Positions 3,820-62,889 of a stretch of 64,000 bases of DNA are shown here, piece after piece. This stretch comes from Microthyrium microscopicum (taxonomy: Eukaryota): positions 1,433,784-1,497,783 of the forward strand of contig MU004231.1 in the NCBI GenBank assembly GCA_010405405.1, given 5' to 3'. Made by a program: the position numbers and the translations under genes. The notes beneath the pieces are model-generated. The model was not told where the DNA came from. It searched no databases and was given only the letters and a program-made list of their open reading frames with translations. Within the stretch, counting starts at the first letter, position 1. The number at the start of each line of letters is the position of its first letter.

Positions 3820-4249
3820 TGATTATCTAAGGATTACAGAAGAGTTAGCAAGTAGTAATGGTTGTAGTGTTACAGGCGTTAGAGATGCATTATTTCTCAC
3901 AAGTCTTTAGCTCAATAAACATTACGACGCCACTAATCTTAGATCGTACAAGTCTTAGTACAAAATAAACATTAGGCGCAGTCATAATAGTTGACTAAGG
4001 GTTATCAATTAGCTAAGACTTAGTACTAACCTGCTTCTAATTAGACTATTAACATCTTACAGCCGCCATACTACAAAGATCAGGCGCGCACGCTCCCACC
4101 ATTAGGCGCCCCATCGCGCTTACTTTCGCTTACTACACGTATCAAAAGCACTTAGATCTAGATGAATTCATTTATTCCACGCTACTATATACTACATTGC
4201 ATTGCAGATTAGTACATAACAAGTACTATATTAAAACCCAAAATACACT

Positions 4250-6880
4250 AACATACTTTACTATCCATAGCCAACCCCTTCCCCTTACCATCTAGACCTT
4301 CTAAATAGTTAGTCAAATCATCTGCCAATAGGAAACTTACACTAAATCGGAAATAACGAGGACTAATAAGGTGTTACATAAACCTATTTTAAGCTTAGGG
4401 GCATTACAATTTGCTAAGAGACTACAGCCCCTTACCTTTAGCCGAAATCTTTAGCTAAAGTAACATAATCAAAATCGTATAAAAGCCAAAGAATAGTCTC
4501 TAGCTCAAAAAAGCTCTATAAGAGTAATATAAGGCAGCTATAGGGTTAAACGATTCAGCTTTGAATAAATATAAATCCGTCAAGAAGAGATACTAAGATT
4601 TAGACGCTACGATTTGTAGGGGTATATAGAAATTCATCCAATAAGAGAAGAAGTATTTCTTAAGCTTTAGCTTGCATATCTAGCGTATTAGCCACAGCGG
4701 AGTCCTCCAAGAATCGTAACAATATAACTTACAGAGCCAAGAGGTAAATTATATCTTTGCTACCAAAGTAAGCCCAAAAGCAGCTAGCTATATCTTTTCG
4801 CTATCTGGTATCTTAGCTGCCAGCGGCCTCATTCCATTCCAGCGCCCCAGCCCCTTGCTATGCTATCTAGCAACCATTTGAGTCCAAACCAACCCCAAAC
4901 GTAGATCCGATGCCACATCCGATCGGATATGACACTTACCAATCAAATAACCTACCTGCTTCGGGCTTAACGCTGGAACAGATAAGACAGCTAACCACTT
5001 CAGAGCTCGCAATGCGTAGCGCCATAGCAACGAAGGTAATATTTACTACTACCAAGGAAAGTCAGGGGTAGAGGTAATCTAGAGATGGCATATAGGGCCC
5101 TTAAAGTTAGCTGCAGTATCTAATGTTAATCTATGCAGTCAAGATATAAGGTTTAAATAGGAGCTTAACGTACTAATATTAGGTAAAATGCTAGTAACAA
5201 TGGCGTTCGTCGGCATAGACCTTAATATGCAAAGCGTTAAGGTTAGCAATAGCAATCTAGATAAACAGGAGTGTCAATACATACCTTATATTATTTCAGA
5301 TTAGTAACTTAAGACCAAAAGCCTAGGAAGAATTAGCTTAGCTATATATTAGACACTGTAGTTAACCCCTAGGAGAATATATAAGGGAAGACACAAGATC
5401 AGGCTAGGAGGCACGATAGTCATACTTCATACGTACCATAGATAGATCATAAGCGAGACAAGCACCTAAACTACCTTCGTTAGTACCGTAATCCTAGCAG
5501 TGCCTTTAAAGTATATTAGGATCCATAACAGCACATTAGATTAATAGAAAAGAAACTTATCTTAGAGCTCATAGTACTAAGTATATCCAACACCCATTCA
5601 TTCCTTTCATAGTTAGCTATAGTAGTATAACTATTAGGATAATCTTACTATGCCAGCCAATACTAAGTCCGCCCTACTAATATACAGATAGCATAAAGTT
5701 AGCATAATCTATTGGTTCATAGGCCTAATAACTTACCTATATATTATAAGGATGGCCATCTAGCTTCTACTTACACTATAAGTATCAGCAACAAGTCAAG
5801 TTGTGGTTCTATGTAATAGGGGCAGCGATATCACAGTATCAAACCAGGCTCCAACAGCATTCTAATAGGATTAATACCGCACCAGGTAAGGTAGTAGTAT
5901 AGTATTTGCAGTCGAGATGAAGAAGGACTAGATAGAAAGAGGAACTAATCGATAGCTAGGCAGTAGCCTCAGTGATAGAACAAGCGGATAGTAGGATAGG
6001 ATGTATCTGCTAAGGAGCATGGAGAGCACGAGGAATAGAAGGAAGAGATTGCAAGCCGTAGCTCGAGTAATAACTACTAGAATCTATAGCATAAGTAAGT
6101 AGACGAGCAAGACGTAGAGAAGTGTTAGAATTACAGTTACTTAGCATTTAAAATAATTCAGTGTGGGTAATTAATCATCCTAGTGGCATATTAGCACCTA
6201 TCTTCGTATATAGTTAGAGCAATTCATTAGAGAAGAATAACTATGTCGTCAAGGGGAAGAGATAAATAAGTTTGAACTTTAAGAGGCTTTATGCCTAGAC
6301 TCTAGAGTGGCAGAGCTTTCCTATCGTACAAGGTTAGTTTTCAATACATATAAGGGACATCATCGACGTTTAGACGGAATAATATAAGACTAATACTTAA
6401 TTATCTTATATCAATTAATAGTAGTCTATTAGAAATGCTATTAGTTAGCGACGTATTAGAATTGCCTTAGAAGTACTTAGCATAAGCTATAAGAGTGTGC
6501 AATATACGTGTCTTAGAGAAGAAGGGAGCCACTATCCTATGTAATATACCGTTAGCCCTAGAATAAATTAGAAGTAGGATCAAATCATTAGTCCCGCATA
6601 AAGGAAGGTTATACACATATATATACCCAAAGCCTAGTATTTACTAGTTCCGCGAATAGTTCAACGTAGGTAATTAAAATAGCTAGTCTAGTAGGCTATA
6701 CATAGAAGGGATTTCACAGCCTCAATAGGATTAGAATAGTACCTAAAAGCCTATTAGAGCATATCTCTACGAGTCTTAGTAGCACAATAGAGATTTCAGA
6801 AGTAATGAGACAGAATGCTTAATATATAACGATAAGTCGTTAATTCTAGGAGGCGCATCTTAAGTTTTAAACAATTATGG
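4250..6880 (-). pseudogene. One or two further decayed ORFs downstream of the transposase inside the element (limits approximate)
   Basis: Protein-like readings broken only by RIP-type stops, e.g. RLFFGFYTILIMLL*LKISAKGKG...SFLLADDLTNYLEG (4500-4270) and AFCLITSEISIVLLRLVEICSNRLLG (~6820-6740); donor-like GTAAGT near 4938 and 5736. Confidence 0.35.
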
Positions 6881-7189
6881 AATAAAAGTGATAAAGAATA
6901 GACAGAGAAGAAAGAGATAAAGTTAAATTAAAAGCAAGGCGCCAGTCTATGTAGTAAGAGATGTCTAAGCAGGAAGTCACGATAGACAGATATCTAACTT
7001 CATCTCATCATTTATAGTGTATTAGCACGAGCAATATTAATTTTAAGAGACGTCAAATAAGAATAGAACAATAATTTATACTATCTAAATACAAGTAGAG
7101 AACCCATAGTGTTCATCTATAAGCAGTAATATCTATAAAAACAAGTCAATAGGCTTTTAAGGAGTATTAATGCAAGCAAACAATATCCG

Positions 7190-10100
7190 TTTAGTAATAT
7201 AAATACAGGTTAAAGATTACACTATAAAGCTAAGGCGATACGGTAGATTCAGTACAGAGAGAAGCAATAAAGGTAAAGTATAAATAATAGAACAAAACCC
7301 AATGCAACGCTGCCCCTAATAAACACCACCCAGCTTACATATAGCTAAAGTCCTAGTCAAGGTAGAGATAACCCTAGATCTTAGAGTCTTCGTGGGTTAG
7401 AACCAGGCGATTACCTTCAGCTTTATAAGGAAGCATGTAAAGATAAGTTAGTGAGACGCTTTAAATACTAACAAGCTCAGTCCGAGGTTTGCCATCAGCG
7501 TCTATAATACGGTAGAAGAAGATACCACTAGTAACAGGATCAACACCACCACCAGACTTCCCTAAGATCTCAACAAGAAGGAACACGCGCAGACGCTTGG
7601 ACACTAGTTCGTGGACAAGAACCTGTTAGATAATTCCATAGTACTTCTTACGGAACAGGATAGCTATATCACAACTAAAAGTCATGCATTTCTCAGTATT
7701 ACTATATCCAATTAGCCTTAAGTCAACGAAAGAAGAGAGTATAACTTACGGATTAGTGAAGGATACCAACTTACTCTAGTGCAGTAGATCTAGACAACTA
7801 AACTATACGCTAGGCTCTAAGTAGTCCTTTTCATATGCTGTGAACAGTTTGTCCTCAACGGCAGCCTAATACAGATCTTAATTAGTAGTCTTCGCTAGCA
7901 GGCTGTAATCATATACGCTTTTGGTTATTAGAGATAATGCTACCTTAATAGCGTAGTAGTTAGGATCTAAAATAATGCCACCTTCAAAGGCCTAGCTAGT
8001 ATAAGAGACTTCAAGGGAATTAATATACTCTTATTATTCGGACTTAGGTAGCATATAAATAAAGATAACTAAAATCTCCTGTTAAAGCTCTTAAAGCTAT
8101 GTAGTAATCGCCAGCGCAATGTCTTTTATAGCACCACCAAGGGTAAACCAAAGAGACTACTACTCTGCATCTTGGACCAAAAAATCACGATCTAGTAAGC
8201 AATAATTAGTTCCATATATAGCTGCCTTCTTATCGCTATGTTCTTTTTTCACTAGGGAAGGTAACGACATTCAAAGGCTTCAAAAACTACTCAAGTATTA
8301 TATCGTTATATAATCTAATATGGATATTAAGGCGACCTTTTAGCACTCAGTACGCTGCAGCCTTTACTAAATCAGGCTTAATAACAGGCACTGTACCAAC
8401 TAGATCTGCCGGCTAATCGCTAATCAAACCAGGTATTGTTAGTAGCGCCATCAAGCCAGGTATAGATACTAATAGCAATACTAATGGCGGAGCCTACTCT
8501 ACAGTAGTCAGAGCCCAATTACCAGCACAGCTTAGACGTTAGCTTCTAGCTCAACTAGCAGGACGACTAAAACTACGTGGATTCATAGTATAAGCACGTA
8601 CAGCGGCTTTATAAAGCTTTTACTAGTAATAGCGTACTAGGATTATAGTCCATTTGAATGCTTAACGATCCGCAGCAGTAATAGACTCTGCTAAGAATAG
8701 CAAATTCAATTTCGCTAATACTATAAACACATGCGCCATAATAGCTTCAACAAGCTCATCATTCAACAAGCGACGTCTAGGATTTATCTAATTGCGAAGA
8801 AGAGTGCCAAATTCAGCCATAAGAGTTTAACGGAACAGCTAATTTATATATTCAGCTCATAGCCATAAGCGATACATACTAATAAACACAATTGCCCACT
8901 AACCATGCTCCTACATAGTATAGCTGCTAAGATAGTAGATAGGATTTTAAATACAGCCCCACGAAGGTAGGAATAGAAAGCCACAAAAAGCTAAACTATA
9001 AGCCTCTTACTTTAACGATAATAGTAGCCTATTAAGAAACAGGTTATAAGCTAAGTTTGTAAGACCATTAAGCTTAGAATAAGCTAGATTAGATAGTTAA
9101 GATATAGTTAGATCTAAAACAGGCGAGAGTTAAGAAATTAACAGAACGCCAATAAGCATAAGTCTAGTAGCCATTAAATATTTGCCTTAAGTAGTAATTC
9201 CCAATGTCTATATATAATTAATTATACGTTCAATCTCGTAATAATAATATCCCTAGCAGAGAGTATCAAAATTAAGGTTAGAACGTTCCTAGCCTTCATA
9301 ATTACAGAATCAGCAAGCTTTAGTAGAACTAATAGCTCAAAATCCTAAATTCTAATATTACTAAAGCATATCGCTAGTATACGCAAGAATAAATACACAT
9401 AGTTAAACCTTTTTACTAAAGGACACCTTTATAACCACACCACGCTCTAAGGCATAAAGGTAGCCTTTAACAACATTAATAATACTAGTTATCTAGCTAC
9501 TATAAGGGCCAAGCATAAAAGGTAGAATATTAGCAACACAATTACGTTTATAAGCTTTTAAACCTGCTAGGAATTAGTAGAAAGCGGTAATAGTTCAGTA
9601 CATATTCCAATAAAGACTAAAACTATCAATGTAGAGTAATAAAGCTAAAGACACAACTAGAATATTAGAAAAACAAAAGTTCTTCTTAAGGATATCACGG
9701 CTAAAGTAACGAATCTCCAACTCTGTACGCAGAATTATACGCTAAAATAAAGGACATAATCTAAACTAAGGGTAGTAGATCTATTAAATGTAAGGATTTC
9801 CCTTATAATCAAATTCAATATAATTAGCCAGTTTATGCTACATATTAGAGCTAAAGTAATTATCTATAAGGAAGGCTCCTATAGCTAAAGCAGAGATACA
9901 AACATGAATAGCTTTGTTAGGTAGAATGTATCAGATATTAGTATTATAGAGGAAGTATTCCTATCTAATCAGACCCACTAGGAAGAAAGGCTTACAAATC
10001 AAGAAACCTTAAGCGTCCCAAGGTGCGTATATAATTCCTAAAGACGCTAGAGGAGGCCATCATTTATTTGTCCATACAACCTCGTTATGAAGTATCATAA

Positions 10101-11527
10101 TACCTTACGCAAAGGCTTACATTTGCGCAGTTTGCGAAGCAGAGAGTACAAAGGTATTCAAGTTATTACTATATGTCTTAATAGCAGACACCTATATAAT
10201 CACCTTGATCTTAAGAACGGCGCAGCTATTTAGTCCGTTATAGTCGCAAACTGTTCGATAATCCTTTCCAAAGGCAACGACAAGTTCGATATGCCCTTTA
10301 GCACCCCAAATAGCACAATTTAGACAATCTTCTACTCTATAACGGTAGGCAATAATATCTAATGGCATCACAGTATATATCTTATCTAGACTAGGAAGCA
10401 ATAGATCTTTAATCTTAATCGTCTTACTAGATATAGCGCAAATCGAAGAAGCCTACGCTTCGCCGTAGTAGAGCTCTATAGGCTCGTCCATAAAGTGGGC
10501 CATTCTAGTATAGAGCTTATCTCAAATGGCTTCGCTTTTAATAGCAGCTATAAATAGCTTAATTAGGTTAACGAAATAGATATAATCTAGAATAGGAGCT
10601 TATTTCCTCTTCTTCTATTTAGCTTGCTTATTTAGTAGCTTAGTCTAAGTCAAAGCAAGCTTTTAACATCAAACCTATATAGTAGGAATTTAGATCTCAA
10701 CGTAACGCTTTAAGGTTCTAAGAGTTACTAGAAGAGACTCTAACTCTAGAATCTCGTAATCCTTAATTTTTAGCATTAAAAGGACTTAATAAAGTCCACG
10801 CCAATCAAGACAAGATAGACCAACTAATTTAGCCTATAAACCCATAGCTAGCTTAAATTTAGTAATTAGTACAGTAGTAAACTCACGAGCAAGTAGTTTA
10901 GAAGCATCGTTAGCAACCTCAATAGTAAGTATATCGCCAATCTTAATTTCAGGCTCTAATTAACTAAATACATCTTAATTTAGCTTAACCTCATCGTCAT
11001 CATCAAAGAAGTTATTAAAGTTGTCATTTAGATCGGCAAGATCTAGTAGTTCTTTAAGAATATTCTCCTTAACAGGCTTAACGATTGCTAGGTCTTCTAG
11101 ATCTAGATCGTCTATTAGTTCTTTAAGGCGACCTTACAATACATTAAGACGCGTAGTAAGTTGCGTAAGAGACTAAATATTAAGTTAATATCTATAATAA
11201 TTACACTACGAATAATAAAGGTTTTAAGTTACTTACTAGTTTAGACAAGTCTACAATTTCTTTAGGTTCCTCTACGCTCTCTATAATTTTATTAGCATCG
11301 TTACTAAAGCTATGACCATTATTATTGAAATCTTTATTACTACTATAAAGTAGCATATCAATGTCCCCAGACCCTACAGACTTTCTAGGCTAGTGATAGA
11401 TAATTAGGCGAGCGGCAGATCTAGTCGCTAATGCTCCCTCTAGAGGTATAGTATCTTAATATCCGCGACGACGCTTTGGCACAGGTCCAGCCTTAGCAGC
11501 CAGAACAAAGTAGCTACGACGTGACAT
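7190..11527 (-). pseudogene. RIP-mutated CACTA/Tnp2-like DDE transposase (3' end approximate)
   Basis: ATG at 11527 (MSRRSY...PVPKRRRG, NLS-like). In one frame: ELYYGEA*ASSI (~10476), YIDSFSLYWNMY*T...LPFMLGPYSS (9660-9500; de-RIPs to DGFGLYRNMYR...LGPHGS), YTSDML**Y*NLGF...AC*FC (~9372; GDMPQQ..NSGF..CRFC) and SNLAYSK (~9090; DPAHSE). These correspond to the DGF, DxP and DxxH motifs of CMC transposases. The stops are CAA/CAG/CGA/TGG-derived transitions. Confidence 0.8.
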
Positions 11528-12099
11528 GCTATACAGATCCCTATATTACACTAAGCAATAGTAGTTAGCAATGAGGCTCTGCGGGAATATCCAAACCAAT
11601 GACTTAAAAGCAGAAAAGTTTTATCTCGCACGTACTACAGGTTCGCAAGCAAGAGAATTATTTCAAAGATAATAGTTAGGCAATAGAGCTCATATTTTAA
11701 GCAACAATTTGAAGACAAGAGGGAGAGAATAATAAAGATTTTAGAGATAGGGAATTAAGAGTTAGAGATAGTTTTATAGCCTACAGTAGGGTCAAAAAAG
11801 CAAAGGCCTCTACCAAATTGCTACAGCCAATCAACACAAGCAAACACTTAGCCATACTACGATTAATAAGGGTCAACACGTGTCAATTAAATCTAGATCT
11901 TAGATTCTTAGTTATATACGTTTACAATCTTTTCTAAGTCCTAAAAAGAAGGACAGCAATTATTTATATTTACCATAACAACCAATCAGTGTTTTCATAA
12001 ATAGAGGTAAGCAGACTAGAAAGGCATCTAGGTTTATGTACTATCAGTTTAGGCATTGTAGATTTATTTTAGTTTATTAGATCGTATCGCATTAGCATT

Positions 12100-12470
12100 G
12101 AAAATTATAGACTTACTTATCTAGTAACCATTAAAGTATCATCATCATCAAATGCATCTTCCATAGCTTCTTCCTATACTCTAAGGTACAGCTTCGCTTC
12201 GACTTGTGCTTTAAATACGCAAGCCTTTAACCATACCAGATTCTTAGTCTCGCCGGACCATTCCATCCTCAGAATCAGACTCATCGCCTCTTCCAAACGA
12301 CCAATTGCTTCCTCAGCTATACTCGGTTAGTTATACGTTAGCAGTAGTAAGTAGTATATAGCAATTACTAGTTAGTAGTAGCGGCGGCGGATGCTCATTA
12401 GCAAACTCGATCGTAAGATTGCCATAGTCTAGATTATCTAGACCAGCAGGCGATAACGAGCCTAGTAGAG
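12100..12470 (-). pseudogene. Decayed small accessory ORF inside the CACTA-like element (limits approximate)
   Basis: Protein-like reading AEEAIGRLEEAMSLILRMEWSGETKNLVWLKACVFKAQVEAKLYLRV*EEAMEDAFDDDD followed by a GTAAGT donor near 12117. Confidence 0.5.
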
Positions 12471-13399
12471 AAGAGGAAGGAGGAAAAGGGGCTTGTAAGG
12501 ACATAATTATAGTTGATAAATTTAGATAGCACTTATTTAGTATACACTATTGTAATGAAGTTGGTTGTATTAAAAAAAGAAATTAACAGCGCGACGCGAC
12601 GTCACGCGAAATTAGAAGCTCATCGTGACTACTTATTGTACCTCCACGCGCTCTGCCCCACGAGATCCCAAGATCTCGACAACACAGCTACTCTACGTTA
12701 AGATCCTCTAGCAAGTAAAAATAGGAACCACTAGTCATCTCTAGATTAGTCGTTATGCTCAGAGGGTCCAGGCTTTGTTATATCTATTTAAGCTAAACGG
12801 CGCTCATTGCCAGAAATAGTCACTAGGGCTCGACGTAGTAGACGGATTGGACGAGTAGGTCTAGCAACACTTAAGGGCCCAACCATTCATGTTAGCGCGA
12901 TGTTGTCCTAATAGGTACCTCAGAGAAGTAATCAAGGGTCGATTAAAAATACAGGATCTAGAGGTCTACAGTCTAGGTGCGTAACCTCTAGGGTTGTGAG
13001 ACATAGAGGTTTATCTTATAATATTAGTACTAAAAAGTATTCAGATCTCCCGACGCCGTAAGCAAAATAAAACCATCAAGCCGTATAGAAGGGCTATGTA
13101 TGTATCTACTCATTAGCTAGTACTTAGTAGCAACGAGAATAGAAACACCCAATATTTTATCAAAATATACCCTAGCTATCAAATTGAGAGCTAAACTACA
13201 TTGTCTAAGAAGACAACTATGACTCTATAAACCCTCTAGCAGTAAATAAACTACGAGCAGTATAGTACGAAGCACAAGATTAAAGAGAACTATTAGCTAA
13301 ACATATAGTTTATTAGCTATATAACTAAAAAATAATAATAAGAAGTACAGGAACGAAAAGAAGATATATAAAAAGGTTTACAGGATTAAAGAGAAGTAA

Positions 13400-47600: not shown

Positions 47601-49787
47601 GCTGTATGGCGGCTCCGGCGCGAAATATTGATATCCTGGCTGTGATTCTTGCGAGGGTTGTGTTGATCAAGGATGACTTGCAGATGGTTTTTGAGCCAGT
47701 GAAAGTAGTCACTGCAAGCTAATTCGGCAAACCTTAAAATGCTAGTCCTGATTTTCACAAGTTCAATCATCTGACTGGAAATACATGTAAAGAGGATCCT
47801 TTGGTTAGTCTGGTTCATGGAAATCAGTGGTCACAAAAGGGGCCAGCTGAGGCCATCTGGGAAGTTTATGGATGAATTTCTTGCCATGCCGTCTATGAAG
47901 TCCACGAAGGAGGTCTCCTTGATAATACAGAATGAGAGAACTTTCCAGAGCGAGCACACGTGAAGTGCATAGATTTCCCAGGCTAGAGAATCCTACAGCC
48001 AAACCACCGGTCTTCCCTCCCTCCCATCTGCGCAGATGGAGAACCAAAGAGCTATGAAATATGCACTATAGCGTACGGGCCAAAAAGTGCTCCCTGATGC
48101 CTCCGATGGATGTGAGATGTCTCCGCCATTCCCCGCCAATGAGGATTTCAGAACCACTTCGCATTATGCGGAGCGAGACCTGGTTCTCGACGTTCTGCAT
48201 GGCATTAACGAGATTCAGTTAGCCCATCCCCACCACGAGAATTGTCCTTGTGTTTTTTTGATAATAATCGCGCTGCATTAGAGAGTATCTCACAATTTGA
48301 CAATCGAAGGTACAATAAGCTGTTTCTCAGCCCGGTTGTACTGCTACAAGAGCCTAATGTGCTGGTTGCCTCACCGTTTACGGTACTAGGATCTTTTCCC
48401 AGCTCAATGACTTGGTTGTCTTGAGAAACGCACATTAGTTTGGCCTTTTTACAAACCATCATGCCACTGGTTGTTTCCACCAACCGGCCCTGACTTGGTA
48501 TAGACACTAGAGTACCCAGCCTTGCACAAGCTCTTTTGAGTTTGAATGGCGGTTGGCGCGTTCAAATTTATATCTAGAAGGCATCGCTAGGATGAAATGC
48601 TCTATTGAATGAGAGCACTAGAATAAATCCGCAGCTGTCCCAACAGTTGCCAAAGTACACTTCAACCGAATCACATCGTTCAATTCTAACGTTCGGTGCC
48701 GAGTCTACTACCAAATGCAGCTATGGAAAGTACACATAATTTACTATTCTCTCGACGACATTACAATCAGAACATGGATTGCCACCCTGAAACTTTCGGT
48801 TCCGGGACATCTGTCGACTTTCGGTTCACGGAAAAGTGCATGCATCGTACTTCATGCATGTATGAACACACTGCCATCTCAATCACTCACCGGGGGCAAA
48901 CCGAACTTGCTGGCAAGTGCCGCATGTTTCTAAAGGTAGGATATATGCCTGTCGATTTTCAGCACGCAGAACATGCAGAGACTTCCCATGCAAACAACCT
49001 GCACGCAACTCGTTTCTGGACCAGTAATGAAGTAATCCTGGTACTAAATGAGGCTCTTGTTTGTGGCTATTTCCACATAGATCGCCCGTTTGATTGGATA
49101 AGTCTTCCAAAAACTACCCACACACAGAAGTCGGTAAGCACACCTTTTGGGCCTAGCAAATACAGAGAGAATTGGTCTACATGGCATCTCAGGTCGCCTT
49201 CGTAATCCTACTTGCTCAAAACTCAAGTCTACCTACCTGTTAGCATGCACACGGAATTTCCCTCGCTCTGCCATGTACATGATCGACAGACCGGATTGAC
49301 GTATTGAGACTCGTTCCGGATCCACTCACCTTGTTTCTGTTCGAAGGACTAGCCCATAGACCCGATCAGGAAGCATTTTAATATTTAGCATGACCTTGTA
49401 GACCCGTTAGGTTGTACACACAATATGTGCGCAGTACAGTAGGCTGCTAGACTGCTTCCATATCGCAAGTAAGGAGAGACAAGCCAACAGCACTTCTCTA
49501 GTATCGGTTATGCGGGCCGCATCCGTCAACCTTGTAGTTGACAAGCTGAACATAGCAACTTGAAAGACACTAGTTATGTGAGCAGTTCTTTTAAGGGCCT
49601 CTGGGGTCTTTTCTCGAGAGACATTGAGTTTCTATAAATTCCTTCTATTCTCTCATCAACCGCACATAACATCATGTAAGTTTAAAGATCCAGATCAGGC
49701 CAATCCGAAAGAAACCTATATGTAAGGCCTACAACGCTAAACCTTACAGCAGATTGCTTTTCCCGGAGGCCGCTTGCTTGCGTTTCA

Positions 49788-51263
49788 ATGGCTCCCCAAA
49801 CTGATATTCCATTAGTAAGTCTTTGCCTAGACAGTGAGACATCATACTGATACCGCCAGACAGCCAATGTGCTGGGAGTATGTACTCTTCCTTCGTCTGG
49901 TCAGCAACAACTAATCATATTGTTTGCCTCAAGATAATAGGAACTGGTAAGTGCCTCTAACCCTTGGAAGAGTGTATTGTAACTTCATTGCGTAGTGTAA
50001 GTGCTTATAAGATATCTTGGAGATTTAATTGGCTGAACATATCATAGGCTTTGGTGCATTCAGGTAATTAACAAGCTGCTGATCATATCTTACAAGTGCT
50101 AACGTTCCCAGCTCGTGCCTCAGTGAGCAAAGTTTGTAACTTTTCAGGAACAAAGCGCTCATGTTTCTAGAATATGGAAAAACTGGAAACGTCAGAGCAC
50201 AGAAGGCGCTACAGGTACCATGTTTCTTATATGGGCGATATGTAAGTTGTCCATGTACCCTAAAGTACTGCCCGTACTTTCTCCTACAGGTACCACACTG
50301 GCTGATCAGTGATAGCATGTCCACCAGCCGGAGCATATGCAATAATACAGGTATTTCAGGAAGTACATCAAACTCTATTATACTGACAATTTACTCCATT
50401 AAGAACTTTAACATACCAATTCAAATCCAGCCCAACATTTTATGTGCTCTAGCATTTGTTGCGTGGAGTCAAACGCTGTTCTACCACAAGTTCGTCCCTG
50501 GACCTGTTGTCATTGACAGGACTGACCAACATTCAGCAAGTTCAAGATATGGAAATCGGTCACTTTAGCTTTCAGTGTAGCAGTCGTCAGTAGTGGTGTT
50601 GAATTACTGCTAGTTTTTATCATACAGGTTAGCAGTAATTGAGAGCTAGGTTTCCACTGTTCCAGTACTCCACTGACAGTATCAGCGGTACTATCGACGC
50701 GGAGTTATCTGGCCTGTCACATTTCTTGGAATCGTTTCCGATATTGGAATCCTAGTAGGACTCATCCCACCATATATCGAGTTGTCCAAGAGGGGCGGCC
50801 AGTCTGTAGGCATAAGTAGCTCTCTCAAACTTCACTGCATAAGATTAAATTACTAATCTCTTCCGACAGGCTTTCGATTCCTCGCTGTCGACATGAGTGG
50901 AGCATTGTTTTCGCTTCTTGCATTAGGTAATCGAATATCCAATGGTTCCAAGATCGTACAACACTAATCAAACAAAAGCTGCGCAACACACTTTTGACTT
51001 TCTTGGAGGTATCCAATATATTCTCGTGTGAGTCCATAATCTGCAAGACATACATATATTCTGATTTTTGCTACAGCATAACAATGGAAACCGGCATTAT
51101 TTTAGCACATCTCATCTGGTTCATGCGACCCAAAGACGATTTGAAACCTTTCAAGAGCAAAGACAAGAGAAATTGTGAAATTATCCAGCACGATTCAACC
51201 AGATGCTCACCCGGGGAGCTCGAAGCGTCAAAAACAATGGAGAGTCCAAAGTCAATTTTCTGA
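49788..51263 (+). CDS. PQ-loop family membrane transporter, 14 exons including a predicted 1-nt exon
   Basis: Splices to MAPQTDIPLTANVLGIIGTVLWCIQLVPQIWKNWKRQSTEG...WAISCPPAGAYAIIQNFNIPIQIQP...GLIPPYIELSKRGG..VGISFRFLAVDMSGALFSLLAL..QHTFD; 13 short GT-AG introns, most with recognisable branch sites. Confidence 0.88.
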
Positions 51264-51688
51264 TCAAGCTAATGTTTGTGGGAATATCAGTACGTTTTTA
51301 CTTTCACATTATTCATCGTGCTTTTGGCTTATCATAGTCATTTCCGATGTCTTTTTCCTCCGAAGACGCTTCATCTCCTCTCTGAAATTTTCAAAGGGTA
51401 GTAATGCAGGTACTGCTGTCAACTACTGAAAGGTATAATGTCGGATGTAGCACTCAAAATGTTGGAAAATCTACAATTCTGATAGCATTCCGGTGATTTA
51501 GAAAACTGTAATACACTCCATTGTAGTCTTTCTTCAGGGACTGCTTTGGCAGGTGTCGAAGTTCATGTAAATTGCTTTTCAACGATTTAGCTTTGGACTA
51601 AGAAAGAGCTCCTAATCACTTCGTATCTTGCCCTTCTGGAGGTGTCACAACGTCAAATGAGGACCATAGGCATTTTTGGACCCATTCT

Positions 51689-53432: not shown

Positions 53433-54299
53433 GCAGTACGATACGACGGTTTTAGCGATTTGGATTTTACCAGGGGAGAACAGGCATAATCGACTACAAG
53501 TTTCACAACCTAGCATAACATTTCCTTCTCTTTGTCACGATATGAGATTATGGATTACAAGCGCGTTCTTTTGATTGACCTAGTTTCAAGGATTGGAGTT
53601 AGGCACCTTATTAGTTAGTTCTCAAGTTAATTGAGAAATACATCAGTGTTGAAATAAAGTCAAGTGAATACCTTGGAGCCTCGCGCAATGTCGACGAACA
53701 GAGGCTACTTCTCAAATGTTTTGCATGAAGCAATGCAGGGTCTTGCTATTATCGTGGGCCGCAACGTGCAGTGCGCTTCATACGACTATTGGTTGGAAAG
53801 TGGTGACATGCCCGCTTGTATGCATTGGCACTATCAAATTTCCAGCCCCTCAATTAATGCTTTGGGTATAGGTTTCCCCGGATCTACTTGTAGTGGGGAT
53901 AGTCCGGTTTATGTTCAGAGGAAGTACACAAGAACTTTACAGGACGAATAAGGGCTTGCGATGTCTACAACCCCTTTTCGAACCAAACATGCCAACTTGG
54001 ACATGGCTTCTCGATGAACCCGTGAACTCGGAACGTCGTTCATAGCAAATAAAGCACTCGATGGGAAATATCGCACTCGATGAGAGCTTGGCGTTGTATT
54101 TCAATCGCCCCACCACAATAGATTTTGATGGAAGCTCTTGACCGCCTCGGCCTTCTTGATGTTTTGTTTCCACACCATTCATTCTCCAAACATGACCTGA
54201 TTCTTCGATCGCAATTTTATCTTATTCTATGTTTATTTCCATCGTTCAATCTTGTCCTTGGTCTCTGCATTAAAATTTAAACTTGGGTGGACTGAAAAG

Positions 54300-55043
54300 C
54301 TATTCTTAATTGCAAGATACTGTGGACTGCTGCAGATTCTTAGCAACCAAAAAAACTACCAATATGAAATCTGCTAGAAGGTAGTTTTTGACGTTTAGAC
54401 CCGCCCTTCTACTAAAACATAATTTAATTAAATTCTAACTTTAGAATAAGTTATTGGGTCCTTTCCTTTATAACTTATGGCTTTAAAATATTTATTTACG
54501 ATCTTTATTAGTAGAGTAATTTGCTTTAGAAACTTACTAATGGTTTTTAAGGTTTTTTGGCAATAAGACCAAAAGTCTTAGCAAGCTAAAACCAAGATTC
54601 TTAAGATTCTTAAGGACTAACTACGGTTAACTTCTAAGGCAATTTACTCTATTAATAAAGGTCATAAATAAGAATTTTAAAGCTATAAGTTATAGAGGAA
54701 AGGACCTAATAGCTTATTCTAAAGTTAGAATTTGATTTGCTTCTAAAACTACTTTATAATGAGTTATTAAAGTAAGGTCAAGATAGCTAAAGATAGCTAA
54801 CTTTAACTTAAAGCTACGTTACTAAAACCTTATATAATTAAATTCTAATTAAAGAATAAGCTATTAGGTCCTGTCCTCTATAACTTATAGCTTTAAAATT
54901 CTTATTTACGACCTTTATTGATAGAGTAAATTGCCTTGGAAGTTGACCGTAGTTAGTCCGTTAACACTTGAAATTGTGATTTTGGCTTTTATTCCTTGCC
55001 AAGACTTAGCGCGCAGTCCACAGTATCTTGCAATTAAGAATAG
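54300..55043. mobile_element. Non-autonomous MITE / fold-back element (744 bp)
   Basis: Perfect 31-bp inverted repeat CTATTCTTAATTGCAAGATACTGTGGACTGC (54300-54330, 55013-55043). TSD is either TA (inside the IR) or AG (outside). No ORF; three internal copies of a ~120-bp unit; RIP-like TpA richness. Confidence 0.85.
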
Positions 55044-55899
55044 AGGCACGACTACTCCGTACTGAGCAGGGTTGTGATTTAATTTAGTACTTTTTAATTA
55101 ATTTCGAATTAATACTAATTAAATTAATTTTAATTCTTGATTTTCAAATTAACTTAGTATTAATTTGGGGTCTGTACTAATTAAATTAATTAGGCTGAAT
55201 TAAGAATTAATTAAATATATTAATTTAAATTAATATATTTATAGTTATATATTTATTTATAGTAAAGTTATATACTTTACTATTCCATTTTCTTCGTAGA
55301 ATTCAAATCTATTCTTAGAATTTTTATATCTATTATAGTTATAACGATATGAATAGATTTAGAAAATATTTAATAATTATTATTAGTAAAATAAGAATAT
55401 CTAAATAGTTATAATAGTTATAAAAATAAGAATAATATATCTAAATTCCTTAAGTTTTCTAGATACTAAATATATATAATAGCTTATATAAAACCTAAAT
55501 ATACTAATAGTTATTAGCTTTAGGTTAAAAGTTAGTAAAATTTATATACTTCTTAATTCTTTTAATTACTTAAAAACAAGATATATAGCTACTATTCTAA
55601 TTATAGCTATAATATAATAAAAGTATATATTAAAATACTCGTTATAAATCTAGGAATATAAATATAATAATAATTTAGCTTAATATTATATATTTATTAC
55701 GTAATTAATATATTTAGAAAAAGAAAATTATAATTTATTAGTTTTATAGTATTTATAATATTATATATAGTATATTAGCTTTAATTACTATATATATATA
55801 CTTATTATATACTAGGAAGTAGTATATAGTAAGTATATTTTCTTATTTAGTTATATATATTATATAAACTTAAAATATTTAACTATTTAATATAGTTTA

Positions 55900-57610
55900 T
55901 TAAAAAATAAAGTTCTAAATATATTATATATAATTATTATAAGCTATAAGTGTTTTTTTATACTTATAATAGCTATAGAAGATTATTAGAAGTAGTAATA
56001 TAGCTTTATATAGTTAATATATATTATTAATAGTATATTTACTATTATTTTATAAATATTAAAAAAGCTAAAATATTTCTATCCTTTATATACTTAGTAT
56101 AATATTATTATTATAATACTAAAATTACTTTAAACTAATTAGAAAAATAAGCTCTATAAAATAGCCTATTTAGATTTGCTTATCTAAGCCTTAATAAAAT
56201 AATTATATAAAGAAATTTAAAATAATAAACTATTATTTATTAGTAGAACTAGACTTAGATAAGATAAGAAAAGTATAGCGTTATAATTAGAAAAAATAGC
56301 TCTATCTACTAGTATAATTAGTTTACTTATATAAGCTATATTAATAAATTTTAGAATTCAAACAAGAGAATAAAAATTATATTTCTAGTCTCTATAAATA
56401 TCTAGATTATAATTATTAAAATCTACCGTATCTTCTACTTCTATAGTATCTACTATACTATTATCTTATATTATAGCTTCTTCTTCTATAATAGTAGGAG
56501 TAGTTTATAGACTATAAAAAGGGCTAGAAGAATAATAGTTAGTAAGTCTAGTTCTTTCTAGATTAATTCCCTTTTTAGCTACTATTCTTCTTCTATTAGC
56601 CTAAATATAATTAGTATAAATATTAATTAATATAGTAATTACTTACTATAGTAGCTATATATCTTTTTATAGTTTCTTTTTATCGCTTTTTTTTGTCTCT
56701 TTTTTGCTAAATTATCTATTCTAAATAGCGTAATTCTAATATATTGTTTTTATTAGTTCTAGCTTTAGAACTATAAGGTGTTTTTAGCTAAGAAAGCGTT
56801 TTTTCAAAAGGAAATTTAGTAGTAGAATTAGCCTATTTAGGCGATTAATTTTTAGGCATGTCTTAAAATTCTTTAGGCTAATCGTTAATACCTTATAGAA
56901 TCCTATTAGATATTAGCTTAATAATTAATAAATAGTAGTTATTTATTACTTACATTTAATTATTATAGCTAGAAATAAAACTAGACTATTTTGGCTATAA
57001 ATCGTAAAGATTTCCTTCTAATTTTAGTAGTAAAATATATTAATATTCTCTAATACTAGACTAAACTGCTAGTATTTTAAATACGACTAGAACGGTAGTA
57101 TCTCGCTAATTAAGCTAAAAGGTATGTTTATAGTTTAGTTCCTTTCGTTATAGAATATAAAAAATATAGAATATATCTAGTTTAATACTATTTAGTTAGA
57201 TCTTTCGTTCTAGAAAGCTTTAATAATAAAGAAGCTTGCTTTCATCTTTAAAGAAGATTACATAGCTATAAGTATAGCTAGTAGGTAAGCTATTCTTCTT
57301 TAGGAGGAAGATTTTACTAGAATGTATTCTTTTTAAAGAAATAAAAGTAGTAGTATAATCTAAAAACTCACTAACGAATCTCTAAGCTTTACTAAGCTAA
57401 TCTTAAGTCTAAGGGACTACTAGACTTATTAGAAATAACTAAAAAGAGTATTTATTACTTATAGTATAATATACTTTCCTTTAGTGCAACTTATATATTA
57501 GCTATTCTAAAAATAATTAGTTAATTAAAAAAAAAGTAAAAAAAAAACAATATTAGAAAACAAGGTATAACTTACTTAAAAGTGCAACTTAAGAGAAGCT
57601 AACACTATAG
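55900..57610 (-). pseudogene. Possible second, divergently oriented decayed ORF inside the hAT element (limits approximate)
   Basis: Minus-strand GTAAG donors (57575, ~56646) with branch/acceptor motifs and codon-like text broken by TAA/TAG; product not recognisable. Confidence 0.35.
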
Positions 57611-57896
57611 CTAAAAAGAGCAAAAAAAACTAAGTAGAAAGGTATATTACATAATTAAATACTAGTAGGCGAAGTACTAGAAAAGTAGAGGTAAATATAT
57701 TAAGTTAGAAAATAGTTATTAGGGTAGAAATAGGCATATAAGTAGATAACCTAAAGGGCTAGATTACTATGCCAAGGCCCTTATTATCTATCAGCCCTTA
57801 GTACAATTATATGTATTATAAATTAGATTAGTATAGTTACATTACTATTTAGGTTATTAAGTAAGTTAATATAGATTAAATACTAGGGTCTACACG

Positions 57897-58537
57897 TATC
57901 TATTTATAATTATAAGGGCTAGATTACGAGTAATTATAAGAACCCTATAAGATAAGCATATATTAAGGGCTAGATTACGCGTAATTACTAAGAATAGATA
58001 AACAAGTAAGCAAGTATAGATCTAAAGCTAGGATAATAAACAAGTTAAGTAAGATCTACGTTCTAGATTTACGTTATCTATTTATAATTACAAGGGCTAG
58101 ATTATAAGTAAATAGATCTAGACCTAGATCTACGCTTATTTACTAGGATACTTATTATTACTCATAATCTAGCCCTTATTATTATAAGTAATTAAGTAAG
58201 ATCTACGTTATAGATCTTACTCAACTTACGTATTATCCTAGCTTTAGATCTACACTTGCTTACTCGTTCATCTATTCCTAGTAATTACGCGTAATCTAGC
58301 CCTTAATCTATACTTATCTTATAGGGTTCTTATAATTACTTATAATCTAGCCTTTATAATTATAAATAGATAACGTAGATCTAGAACGTAAATCTTACTT
58401 TACTTACGTATTATCCTAGCTCTAGATCTACACTTGCTTACTCGTTTATTTATTCCTAGTAATTACATATAATCTAGCTCTTAATCTACGCTTATCTTGT
58501 AAGGTTCCTATACTTACTCGTAATTTAACCCTTATAA
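57897..58537. repeat. Internal inverted/direct repeat array (~160-bp unit, orientation + - -) in the hAT element
   Basis: 57897-58056 is the reverse complement of 58212-58371; 58391-58537 is a further direct copy of the latter. Recurring motif AAGGGCTAGATTAC / GTAATCTAGCCCTT. Confidence 0.85.
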
Positions 58538-59399
58538 ACATCTTGTATTTAGCTTATATTTAAACGTAGATTAAACGGTCTAGAAACACTTGCTTATTAA
58601 ACAGTTAGATTAGTAATAACTATTCCCTAAAATAGTAGTAGGGGTAGTAAGATAAGAAGAACGTTAGCGTAGTAAACTAGCTCTTTAAATTATATATAAG
58701 TAGTAGTAGTTCTCCTCTAGAAATAATTATATTCTATCTTATCTCATCCTATTCTATCTTATTCTATCTTATACTCTTCTACTTTCTATTATATTAGTAA
58801 TACTATTAGTAGTACTACTAGTTCTTTATTTCTATTACGTCTACTATATTTTATAGTTATACTAGCCTTTTATAGTTATAAGTAAGTTATTTTCTACTTA
58901 ATTTACTTAGTAAATTAACTAACTTTATTTTTAGAAATCTTATTATTTATTAGTATTTCTATAGAAATACTAATAATATATAGATCTTATTAATAATATA
59001 TTAATTTATCTTTATATAATTACTATTATCTATTAGCTTTATAGCTATTATTACTAGAATTATTTATAATTTTAGTATTTTACTAGAAATTTTCTAGTTT
59101 ATTATATATTATTAATTAGAGTTATTCTAAATAATTCTAAATAGTATATATACTATCTAGCTATTTATAGCTATAATAGTATTATATTATTTAATATATA
59201 GTACTAGATACTTTATACTATATTTTTCTAAGATTTATCTTAGAATTTATAATATATTAGGAAATTAAAGGGAAATAATTTTATTTTATAGTTATATTAT
59301 AGCTATAAGATAAAATAAATATAGTTTTATACTATATTTTATACGCTCTATAAGACTATCTATTTAGATTCTCTTATCTAGCCTTAAAAAGATATAAAT

Positions 59400-61920
59400 A
59401 ATTACTATAAAAAGAATAATAACTAATTCAACTATTTAAATAAAAAATAATCCTAATAATAATAATAGCGAGATAATAGATAATATAGATTTATCTAGTT
59501 TACCTAGTAGAGATAACTATAGAATTACTTTTAGAAGTAATTCTAGAAGTAATTCTAGTTTTTAAGAAGACTTAGTAAATTTAACTACTTTTATTAATAA
59601 TAAATCTAATAAATCTAATTTTAGTCTTCTTAAACCTAAAGACGATCTAATTTATATTTTTAGTTAGGGATTATATACTTATAAGCTATATCCTATTAAT
59701 TTAAGAGAGCTACGATCCTATAAAATATAATATTCTTTATATAGTTATTCTAAAACTAAGATTAAAGTAGACGAATTTATATCTTCTAATTATATTTAGT
59801 ATTATAAATTAAAGTATCCTGCTATAGCTTATAATAAGAAAACAGAAAGAACTCTTACTAAGCTTACACTAGCTATTATTAGTAGTAGAAATAGTTCTAA
59901 TTTCTTTAATTTAGCTAAATCTAGTAATCCTAATAAATAATTAAGATCTTCTACTTTAACTAAATTTATAGAAGAAGAAGCTTTAACTAAAGTACTAAAC
60001 TTTCTTATTAAAAATAATCTATCTTTTAATATATATAATTTAGATTCTTTTCAATCACTTTTAAATTACTATAATAAAGCTACTCCTACTATTAATAGAT
60101 AGAAAATAAAAGAGTTATTAGTTAAAACCTTTAATTTAGGTCTAGAGGAATTTAAATTATCTATTAAAAGAGCTAAAGAAGCTAATAGATCTTTTTCTTT
60201 AGTATTAGATAGTTAGACATCTAATACTAGTATAGCCTATCTAGGTATAATTCTAGTCTATATTAATATAGATTTAAAAACTAAATATAACTTAATTAGT
60301 TTTACTAAATTAATAGAAAGTAAAACTAGTTTATATATATATAATAAATTACTTAATATTATTAGTTTATATAATTTAGATTTTACAGATATTATTTCTA
60401 TAACTAGAGATAATACTACTAAGAATGATAAACTACTAGAGTTTATATTTAAAAATCTAGCAGAAATATAAGAAACTAAAAATATTTTAATATTTAATAA
60501 ATTATTTAATATCCGCTATGCTACTTATATTATTAATTTAGTAGCTAAAGATATATTTACTCGTTTCTTATTAGATAAAAGCGTTAAAGAAGAGTTTTCT
60601 AATTATATTAATAAAACTAAAACTAAGAAGTTTTTAAGTAATAGACATAAAACTTTAGGTATAAATAAACGACTTACTTATAATATTATTCTAACTACTA
60701 GCGATTACCCTAGAGGTAGAATAGCTATATAAATAACTACTACTACTAGTAATAAAGAACATAGTAGTTTAATATTTAAAGTATATAAAGTAGTTTCTTA
60801 TATTAAATATAACTAAGATCCTAAAAAGTTATATTTAGAAGGCCTTAAAAAGTTTAAAGAAGAAGGTTTAATTCTTAAAGATTATAATAAAACTAGAATA
60901 AGTGGTAATAATATAACTAGATAGAATTCTACTTATAATATGCTACATCTTTTAATTATTACTAAAGATATAGTAGATTATATTAGTAATAATACTAAAG
61001 ATAAAGAATTTAAAGAGGTAATTATTACTTCTAAAGAATAGCTTATCTTAGAAGCTATTAGAGATATTCTAGAAATATTTGTTAAACCTTCTGTTAGTTT
61101 ATAAGCACAAGTTTATACTACTATTAATACTAGTTTATTACATATTATAAATATATATAAAAAACTAGAAGAAAAGCAATATTATATACTTAATAATTTA
61201 GATTAGCTTAGTTTAAGTTAGTCAGTAGATATAGATAATCTTAGAAGTACTATAAATAAAGGAATTACTAAGTTAGAACATTATTTCCCTAGAAATATTA
61301 CTCCTAAATAATTTAAATATTTAAAACCTTACTTAATAAGTACTATTTTAGATCTTAGATTTAAATTAGAGCATTTTAAAGAAGGAGAAGGTCTTTTATA
61401 TAAACTATCTAGTACTATAAAAGAAGATATAAAAGAACTACTTAAAGAAGAATATAGAAAGCTTAAGACTATATTCTTTACTATAGAATCTAATACAAAT
61501 TTATCTAATTTAAATAGTAGTAATACTACTAGTAAAAAGAAGAGTCTAAATAATAATATTCTTATTATTACTAATAGCGTAGTAGAAGAAGAATATACAC
61601 TATATCTTTAAGAACCTTCTTTACCTAAATCTAAACCTTTAGATTATTAAAAAGTAAATACTTCTAGATTTCCTATTTTATTTCTTTTAACTATTAGATA
61701 TCTTACTATACCTTTTACTTCAGCTTCTATTAAAAGTATTTTTAGTATTAGTAATATAGTTATATCTAAAACTAAAAATAGAATGAATCCTAATATAGCT
61801 AAGATACTTTTATTATTAAAAAGCTAGAAAATTATAAATTATAATTTATTATATTCTTATAAAGAAGAGATATTAATAGAAGAACTAAATATTAATAGTA
61901 ATAAAGAGGAATTTAGTTAG
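59400..61920 (+). pseudogene. RIP-mutated hAT transposase (5' end approximate)
   Basis: In a single frame: LVLDS*TS (60208; DxWT), ITRDNT (60403; TxDN), IRYATYIINL (60511; RCxxH), TR*NST (60916; TRWNS), and PLDY*K...RFPIL...IPFTSASIKSIFS (61630-61746; hAT C-terminal dimerisation domain). Confidence 0.9.
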
Positions 61921-62889
61921 TTATTAAATTTAGAATAGTACTTAAATATAATTATTATAAAACTAAATTATTTAATTTCTAAATATTAAAAGTAAGTTAT
62001 AAGTATTTAATATATTGGTTAAAATAATATAAGAATTAAAGATAAAGCTAATAAATAGTTATTATATATAGAAGTATAAAGTATTAGAATAGATAAATAT
62101 ATAGATATAAGTAAGTAGTAAGTAGTAGATTAATAAAATTATTTTAAATAAGTAGTAATATTAATTATTAATAGTTATCTTTTATTAAATACTTTATATA
62201 GAGTATATAATATAGAAATCTAGATATATCTAATATAGAATTACTATCCTAATATAGCTATCTAACTCTAGCTCCTTATTCACTTTTAGTTATTTAAATA
62301 GTTAGTAAAATAATAAATAAATAATATTATATTTATTTCTAAATATCTAAAGAACCAAAAGCGAATAAGAAAAACTAATAACAGATCTAAAACTAGCGAA
62401 CCTAGACGAAGAGATTAATATAATTTTTATAGCTTAAATAGTATATTTCTATTTTATTAATTTAAATTAATTATTAAAATTAATTAATATTATCTTAATT
62501 AATTTAGTATTAATTCAAGGTAGGCATTAATTAATTAATTTTAGTATAAGCTAGCATTAATTAATTTTAATTTGGCATTAATTAATTAAATTAAATTAAA
62601 TCACAACCCTGGTACTGAGCCAAGAGCTCCCCTGCCGTGTTCGGGAAAATCTACAGGGGTAACAACCACTACGGGCACTAGTAATTCTGCTCCAAACAGT
62701 TGCATTGCTCCTACTCCAACCCTTCATATTCACTTTCCCACTACATGATACCAATTGCCTGAACAACTCGACCCTCTTACCCACTGGTCGCTTGAGAAGC
62801 AGTGAGACTATTTCCTCGGCTTTGCTGGCCTCCGACTACCTCCAGCCAGCTCCGACCTCCTCAATTTCGCTATTGAGGATTATCTGATC

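Follow-up and report, generated by a model that had tools for sequence, protein, structure and literature searches.

The 64,000-nt stretch of DNA analyzed in this study (the window) carries on its + strand a gene for a PQ-loop membrane protein, with 14 coding exons, 13 introns of 45–74 nt in the coding region, and one intron in the 5'UTR. The model of this gene was built on the + strand of the window and then corrected by the joints seen in RNA contigs, and gives an open frame that starts with the ATG at 49788, spans 263 codons, and closes with a TGA whose last base is 51263. Its first 33 codons are shared among seven exons of 27, 18, 13, 1, 16, 11, and 71 nt, with the five consecutive exons of 18, 13, 1, 16, and 11 nt forming a run of micro-exons. 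The features of the gene are as follows.

49676..49752, + strand: 5'UTR intron with alternative acceptors 3 nt apart (CAG/CAG/; end at 49749 or 49752); RNA joints 49675 to 49750 and 49675 to 49753, both GT..AG, skip 74 or 77 nt.
49788..49814, + strand: coding exon 1 (ATG, MAPQTDIPL), from the gene model; the fit of one RNA contig stops at 49814.
49815..49859, + strand: intron 1, 45 nt, from the gene model, with a probable in-frame acceptor CCAG/ at 49859.
49860..49877, + strand: exon 2, 18 nt (TANVLG), from the model; an unplaced contig end at 49877 runs on into exon 3.
49878..49933, + strand: intron 2, 56 nt, GTATGT..AAG, from the model; absent from RNA contigs, where GGGA directly abuts ATAATAGG in the unplaced ends.
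49934..49946, + strand: exon 3, 13 nt (IIGT plus G, the first base of a Val codon), ending ...GGAACTG, from sequence, model, and RNA.
49947..49995, + strand: intron 3, 49 nt, phase 1, GTAAGT...GCGTAG, from sequence and model; gone from all contigs reading across.
49996..49996, + strand: exon 4, consisting of one T, which is the second base of the Val codon G-T-G; unplaced contig ends read ...GGAACTGTG and TGTGCTTTGG..., and the T is also present in 11 related loci.
49997..50047, + strand: intron 4, 51 nt, phase 2, GTAAGT...CATAG, from the model; gone in a mature contig (unplaced end at 50171) and kept in the contig called record 1 (49995–50060).
50048..50063, + strand: exon 5, 16 nt, GCTTTGGTGCATTCAG (third Val base plus LWCIQ), followed by the donor GTAATT, from model and RNA.
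50064..50111, + strand: intron 5, 48 nt; RNA joint 50060 to 50109 (cut +3), GT..AG.
50112..50122, + strand: exon 6, 11 nt (LVP plus the first two bases of Q), from the model; unplaced contig end at 50171.
50123..50170, + strand: intron 6, 48 nt, GTGAGC..TAG, from the model; gone in the mature contig and kept in record 1.
50171..51263, + strand: exons 7–14, with the TGA stop ending at 51263, from the model.
50242–50315, 50351–50403, 50490–50536, 50628–50685, 50816–50869, 50927–50978, and 51028–51076, + strand: introns 7–13, all seven being GT..AG RNA joints.

Inspection of 49934–50063 finds, in order, the G at 49946, a GT..AG intron of 49 nt, the T at 49996, a GT..AG intron of 51 nt, and the G at 50048, which matches exactly the sequence and positions on which the initial annotation had based its proposal of a one-nucleotide exon. 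The T stands as TAG/T/GTAAGT between two complete introns, both with GTAAGT donors, and a branch-like TGTAAC, called by inspection in that annotation, lies near the 3' end of intron 3. The two introns are also sized like the others of the gene, as had been remarked, their 49 and 51 nt falling within the range of 45–74 nt. The longest intron of the gene, intron 7 (50242–50315, 74 nt), contains an internal ...CCTACAG/GTACCA, and the RNA joint takes out all 74 nt as one piece.

The RNA evidence at the site comes from assembled contigs of the public run X1, one run of one study, which were aligned to 49650–51350. The run record does not state that this is RNA, and it was taken as such from its GT..AG joints; ten of these lie in the gene, namely the two acceptors of the 5'UTR intron, intron 5, and introns 7–13, so the contigs derive from spliced RNA of this organism. 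Each of the 15 aligned contigs has a likeness of 99% or more to the window and shows no other letters. As the aligner cannot place exons of 1–18 nt, the micro-exon region shows as unplaced contig ends, and inclusion of the T was read from these ends in a comparison by eye with the spliced model. The end left unplaced after 49814 holds the last 14 nt of exon 2 (starting CCAATG), exon 3, the T, and a G, and the end after 49877 holds exon 3, the T, and a G. Before 50171 there are 55 unplaced letters, and the 30 that are displayed read ...TG, the T, exon 5, and exon 6. The unplaced ends agree base for base with the spliced model, so that the mature mRNA reads GGAACTGTGCTTTGG, the very sequence that the initial annotation had predicted. 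The single base is thus present in the mature mRNA at the level of contigs from one run, from which no isoform proportions can be obtained. A second run, X2, whose status as RNA is a guess, has cover limited to 51077–51268, away from the site.

A partially spliced intermediate, which had also been anticipated, was found among the X1 contigs as record 1 (184 nt), in which ...exon 2 and exon 3 (...GGAACT) are joined to 49995–50060 and then to 50109–50200. Introns 2, 3, and 5 are spliced out of this contig and introns 4 and 6 are retained. Removal of intron 3 is thus possible before the abutting intron 4 has been spliced, which leaves ...ACTG-T beside an intact GTAAGT donor, and introns parted only by micro-exons are not all removed together. 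The reverse intermediate, with intron 4 out and intron 3 in, is not among the X1 contigs, which cannot show absence; the bins at 49878–49991 (introns 2 and 3) have zero X1 cover and were not used as evidence on the order of splicing. One further X1 contig joins exon 1 (49814) to 49864 (ACAG/), 4 nt downstream of the CCAG/ at 49859. Use of this acceptor shifts the frame and leads to a stop after 'PMCWE', so some transcripts of the gene are unproductive. The aligner finds too little sequence in exon 2 for an anchor, so that the in-frame junction of exons 1 and 2 was not directly seen.

The protein supported by the RNA reads IIGTVLWCIQ across the site, i.e., TANVLG-IIGTVLWCIQ-LVPQIW, which fits the family consensus TIGT[VI]xWC[IV]Q. 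The Val assembled around the T aligns with the V/I of TIGT[VI]xWC, the IIGTVLWCIQLVPQIW of the gene model agrees with the consensus in the alignment, and so does the peptide GTVLWCIQLVPQIW that had been expected for the first helix. Exon 7 alone gives a match of 23.8 bits to the Pfam PQ-loop profile (PF04193). One PQ-loop repeat is above threshold; the second (PPY...) half was read by eye.

A search with the 43-residue exon 11 found one deposited protein at 100% identity, P0001 (255 aa), named by its source as a hypothetical protein of Microthyrium microscopicum, a Dothideomycete. It scores 50.7 bits against PF04193, for which the cut-off is 22, and so belongs to the family. P0001 reads TANVLG-EL-LVPQIW, with "EL" in place of the RNA-supported IIGTVLWCIQ, from which it follows that the deposited model lacks exons 3, 4, and 5. 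It covers positions 17–60 only of the PQ-loop profile, against 2–59 and 2–60 in the intact relatives P0015 and P0019. There were 138 homologs above threshold, and the figures given here rest on the 120 listed, 111 of which show the N-terminus. Among these matches listed, the canonical xxGT[VI..]xW[C]xQxxPQ is found in 94 of the 111 N-termini, and 17 of 111 (P0001 and 16 of the 110 others) are aberrant exactly between NVLG and PQIW, with residues missing or intron-like sequence read through. The deposited protein of Chaetomium fimeti, P0107, reads through the site with the insert 'TIGT-G...PKCKL...PS-R-LWCIQ', and from these protein letters the insert can be back-translated to a putative phase-1 donor, AAG/T/GTAAG, and a phase-2 acceptor.

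Related loci were obtained from metagenome contigs scanned with an alignment of 25 homologs, which gave 80 loci; 76 of these carry the region and the other four are contigs without the N-terminus. The one-nucleotide layout is present in 11 of the 76 (L015, L023, L024, L039, L044, L047, L053, L062, L076, L078, and L080), nine of them distinct, since L023 is nearly a copy of L024 and L078 of L080. Recurrence of both intron positions in the one codon, which the initial annotation had suggested looking for, is thus seen among the related loci. All carriers have the form GGN-ACN-[G or A] / GT..AG / T / GT..AG / N-xxx-TGG-..-..-CAR, with first introns of 49–61 nt and second introns of 48–93 nt, and in 11 of 11 the single base is a T, in the middle of the codon GTC, GTT, GTA (Val), or ATA (Ile). 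The intron sequences differ among the carriers and cannot be aligned between the more distant loci, so the carriers are not copies of each other. No intron interrupts the stretch in the remaining 65 of 76 loci (64, and L072 with in-frame stops), and none of the 76 has just one of the two introns. The ratio of 11:65 is not a frequency, since one of the two retrieval patterns (LWCIQLIPQ-like) hits only loci without an intron after the Q, which biases the sample, and some short metagenome contigs may be cDNA. The copy at L072:3001-3601, on a lichen-type contig, is intronless with several in-frame stops in its N-terminal half, and is probably a pseudogene.

Placement of the carriers rests on 42–66% identity to named proteins and on a rough tree. 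By tblastn, the nearest relatives of L015, L023, L024, L039, L044, L047, and L053 include Polyplosphaeria and Pleomassaria (Pleosporales), and L062, L076, L078, and L080 are nearest to Apiospora, Apodospora, Niveomyces, Madurella, and Thozetella (Sordariomycetes). The tree, made with FastTree, has 111 rows, of which 65 are pseudo-proteins assembled from tblastn segments, 45 are named proteins, and one is the window model; loci below 200 aa and exact duplicates were left out. Its label 'cont' covers all rows without the one-nucleotide layout, including L031, L049, and L058, which lack the region, and for some of the named proteins, beyond those looked up, the class is the one to which we take them to belong. 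One clade holding carriers groups the window with Trichodelitschia, Patellaria, Delitschia, Mytilinidion, Polyplosphaeria, and Pleomassaria, all Dothideomycetes (support 97), and a second is a Leotiomycete and Sordariomycete clade (support 95). The clades of lichen-former, Pezizomycete, yeast, and Alternaria type hold contiguous loci only. The window itself sits on a long branch, and an unsafe flag marks its pairing with L033. Matching of homolog names to the tree places 15 of the 17 aberrant models, among the matches listed, in the two clades that hold carriers, the other two being those of Xylona and Thelocarpon. Besides Chaetomium fimeti, the species with an aberrant model include Apodospora peruviana, Niveomyces insectorum, Sporothrix spp., Mytilinidion resinicola, Delitschia confertaspora, Patellaria atrata, and Xylona heveae.

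The label for the one-nucleotide layout requires at least four changes on this tree. Its occurrence across distant relatives points to an old, conserved feature. Since a phase-1 and a phase-2 intron are very unlikely to have arisen twice in one codon, we infer one origin before the classes split, which would have been followed by losses of both introns together. The divergence of Dothideomycetes and Sordariomycetes is estimated to be hundreds of millions of years old.

Introns 3 and 4 of the window gene are the most alike of its 78 intron pairs, sharing their first 8 nt and a CTTGGA block (p 0.0085 with 2000 shuffles; 0.002 with 500 shuffles). The corresponding pairs in L044 and L078 have z values of about 3, similar to the window, and those of L062 are identical over their first 9 nt; no excess likeness was seen in the tests of the pairs in L023, L039, L047, and L053. 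Intron pairs within a locus are more similar than pairs across loci (permutation p 0.0002). With other introns of each gene as controls, the pair comes out on top in only four of nine loci (the window, L044, L062, and L078), and the combined p of 0.066 is not significant; L015, with its upstream intron off the contig, was excluded from this test and from that of pairs within and across loci. The likeness is therefore only suggestive of an origin by tandem duplication or gene conversion, and the abutting introns may have undergone gene conversion with each other or re-duplication.

The bare motif of an intron-like stretch, one nucleotide, and a second intron-like stretch occurs twice in the window; 100 block shuffles gave 1.38 occurrences on average and 6 at most, so there is no enrichment over shuffles in the 64 kb. 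As the bare motif is not rare, what speaks for the exon is its context, made up of the open frame, the conservation of the protein, the RNA contigs, and the recurrence of the layout in 11 related loci. The second match, at 6095 on the + strand (67 nt, T, 51 nt), lies inside an AT-rich block and is probably due to chance. There are two such AT-rich tracts, at 4001–16000 (GC 0.34–0.38) and 54001–62000 (GC 0.19–0.25), compared with about 0.46 elsewhere in the window, and they look like repeat-rich or RIP-type isochores.

The alternatives that have to be weighed differ in what the mature mRNA should read. All single GT/GC..AG introns in 49934–50063 that keep the frame without a stop were enumerated, and one candidate resulted, a 97-nt intron from the donor GTGCCT at 49951 to the acceptor at 50047, which would give GTGKLWCIQ, with one extra residue and no need of a one-nucleotide exon. 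The initial annotation had held that the T is needed for the frame and that no other splice site rescues it; the first part stands, as the frame of 263 codons is open only with the T, but the second does not, although this intron is unused in the RNA. As the sole stop-free single-intron solution it deserves consideration, yet the contigs read ACTGTGCTTTGG, with the T, and not ACTGGTAAGCTTTGG, the product of the 49951 donor (skipping of the T would give ACTGGCTTTGG). Its donor is weak, the extra residue is absent from the family consensus, and the related loci keep the AG/T/GT layout instead, making this solution highly improbable. Shifting the exon by one base, to the GT at 49995–49996 or the TG at 49996–49997, was rejected, as it would require GG..TA or TA..GG introns. 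The one-nucleotide exon is the only canonical solution at the site.

Stwintrons are frequent in Pezizomycotina (Fekete et al., 2017, PMC5587772), and removal of intron 3 does leave G-T-GTAAGT, in which a GT formally precedes the real donor by two bases. A [D1,2]-type stwintron could be read into this, with intron 3 as the internal intron splitting a G/T donor and a second reaction taking out the G, the T, and 49997–50047. However, this path would give ACT/GCTTTGG and a frameshift, which is not what the contigs read, and the new donor, GTGTAA, is poor. Introns 3 and 4 each have complete splice signals of their own, both GTAAGT donors are intact, and the mRNA retains the T, so we consider a stwintron every bit as improbable as the 97-nt intron.

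The remaining objections concern the state of the gene and of its sequence. The T-containing mRNA might be a minor product of a gene decaying in this species, with most transcripts frameshifted or intron-retaining. The contig that retains introns 4 and 6, the one that uses the frame-shifting acceptor of exon 2, and the long branch of the window protein in the tree are in keeping with this. Against it, the 263-codon frame is open with the T, the conserved motifs of both PQ-loop halves are intact, the layout is kept in 11 related loci, and contigs with the mature junction exist; decay is thus an unlikely explanation, if somewhat less so than either of the spliced alternatives above. An assembly error at 49946–50048, where a missing or extra base would disguise a plain intron, has nothing in its favor other than the rarity of one-nucleotide exons. 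It is scarcely conceivable given that independent RNA contigs fit the window without other letters, including across 49995–50060, and that the layout recurs in 11 loci of other assemblies. Taken as a whole, the best explanation, and one in which we have high confidence, is that T49996 is a genuine single-nucleotide exon of an old layout, probably constitutive or at least included in the dominant mRNA, and probably spliced by separate, intron-defined reactions.

Exons of one nucleotide have been described before, and the statement in the initial annotation that APC11 of Arabidopsis is the known case is out of date, as fungal cases are in print (PMC12940212; PMC12230235). In Fusarium CYP621A a 1-nt exon is reported in 20 orthologs, with support from archived reads, the base being a G in AG/G/GT, and is called the second case ever and the first in fungi (Nelson and Syed, 2026, PMC12940212). 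The two cases are alike in being nuclear genes of Pezizomycotina, in having one base between two short GT..AG introns in the middle of a conserved codon, in being missed by predictors, and in being backed by public reads and conservation in orthologs. They differ in that the Fusarium exon is a G in a P450 gene of one genus, whereas that described here is a T, fitting neither splice consensus, in a PQ-loop gene, occurs in groupings with two classes, and lies within a run of five micro-exons. Nelson and Syed (2026) invoke the preference for G at donor position -1 and acceptor position +1 for their exon. The T fits neither preference, so that its identity is set by coding, through its place at the center of a Val or Ile codon, and not by splicing.

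The exon of APC11 in Arabidopsis thaliana is constitutive, is mis-annotated in databases, and was studied with GFP fusion constructs (Guo and Liu, 2015, PMC4674806). It likewise lies between two spliceosomal introns, but it belongs to a plant gene that was tested with such fusions, whereas the fungal exon is known from sequence and RNA contigs. Long-read annotation of Coprinopsis cinerea gave 13 exons of 1 nt in 13 genes, along with many micro-exons of 15 nt or less whose omission broke gene models (PMC12230235), which indicates that exons of one base are a recurrent, if rare, fungal feature. That fungus is a basidiomycete, and what is available of the report presents a genome-wide count without the gene-level or evolutionary analysis given here. 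Stwintrons and the 1-nt intron shift of Pezizomycotina (Fekete et al., 2017) resemble the present layout in having two introns within one nucleotide of each other, with consecutive reactions in the former and positions 1 nt apart in one codon. In the stwintrons described there, however, a splice signal of the external intron is split by the internal one, with no nucleotide remaining between the two, whereas here both introns are complete and a coding base is left; in the intron shift the two positions are occupied in different species, and here both are occupied at once.

No paper on microexons in fungal PQ-loop genes was found in the literature, and no further fungal nuclear case was found in that on one-base exons, as judged by title. 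At the ratchet points of Drosophila, recursive splicing takes place at zero-length exons, which subdivide one long intron and leave no nucleotide behind. There the acceptor immediately precedes a donor, so that a long interval is taken out in successive steps, and an intermediate with an intact downstream donor is formed as in record 1. The site in the PQ-loop gene is unlike these in that a coding base, the T between AG and GT, is retained, and in that both introns are about 50 nt long. The class to which T49996 belongs is thus known, if very small, and the exon is a new member of it, with RNA support and unusually wide conservation. What it adds is conservation over lineages that group with two fungal classes, and a dense cluster of micro-exons.

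As to mechanism, T49996 is bordered directly on both sides by complete, canonical introns of the U2 type (49 and 51 nt), which occupy phases 1 and 2 of a single Val codon, and G-T-G is put together from three exons. Each intron possesses its own GTAAGT donor, branch-like element, and YAG acceptor, and neither interrupts a splice signal of the other. Complete signals in both introns would allow each to be defined alone, as expected for fungal introns of about 50 nt, and the two may thus be removed in separate intron-defined reactions. These are probably successive, since at a spacing of 1 nt the intron-3 acceptor and the intron-4 donor share the same few bases, and record 1 proves that the upstream-first order does occur. 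The micro-exon cluster encodes the first helix of the first PQ-loop repeat, and the layout may have persisted because the frame would shift if the gene lost the T or lost either intron imprecisely. A fuller scenario would combine one origin before the split of Dothideomycetes and Sordariomycetes, retention in one PQ-loop lineage, loss only by clean removal of both introns, a fixed upstream-first order, and introns kept alike by gene conversion in some lineages; that all of these hold together is rather doubtful.

These results are chiefly of interest to specialists in splicing and intron evolution, and have practical value for genome annotators. Aberrant models, including the one deposited for this gene, lose or scramble the first helix of the PQ-loop domain, and a rule for out-of-phase intron pairs is needed in gene predictors. 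For splicing, the study adds an RNA-supported one-base exon, and, as its T matches neither splice-site consensus, the identity of the exon cannot matter and the introns would be recognized wholly from within. The five micro-exons, within about 400 nt, offer a compact substrate for experiments on the order of splicing and its steric limits in a fungus that defines its introns. For evolution, a layout present in groupings with two classes and without single-intron intermediates provides a natural series on the gain, persistence, and loss of abutting introns. If the single ancient origin is true, no one-nucleotide exon of greater age or wider conservation would be known.
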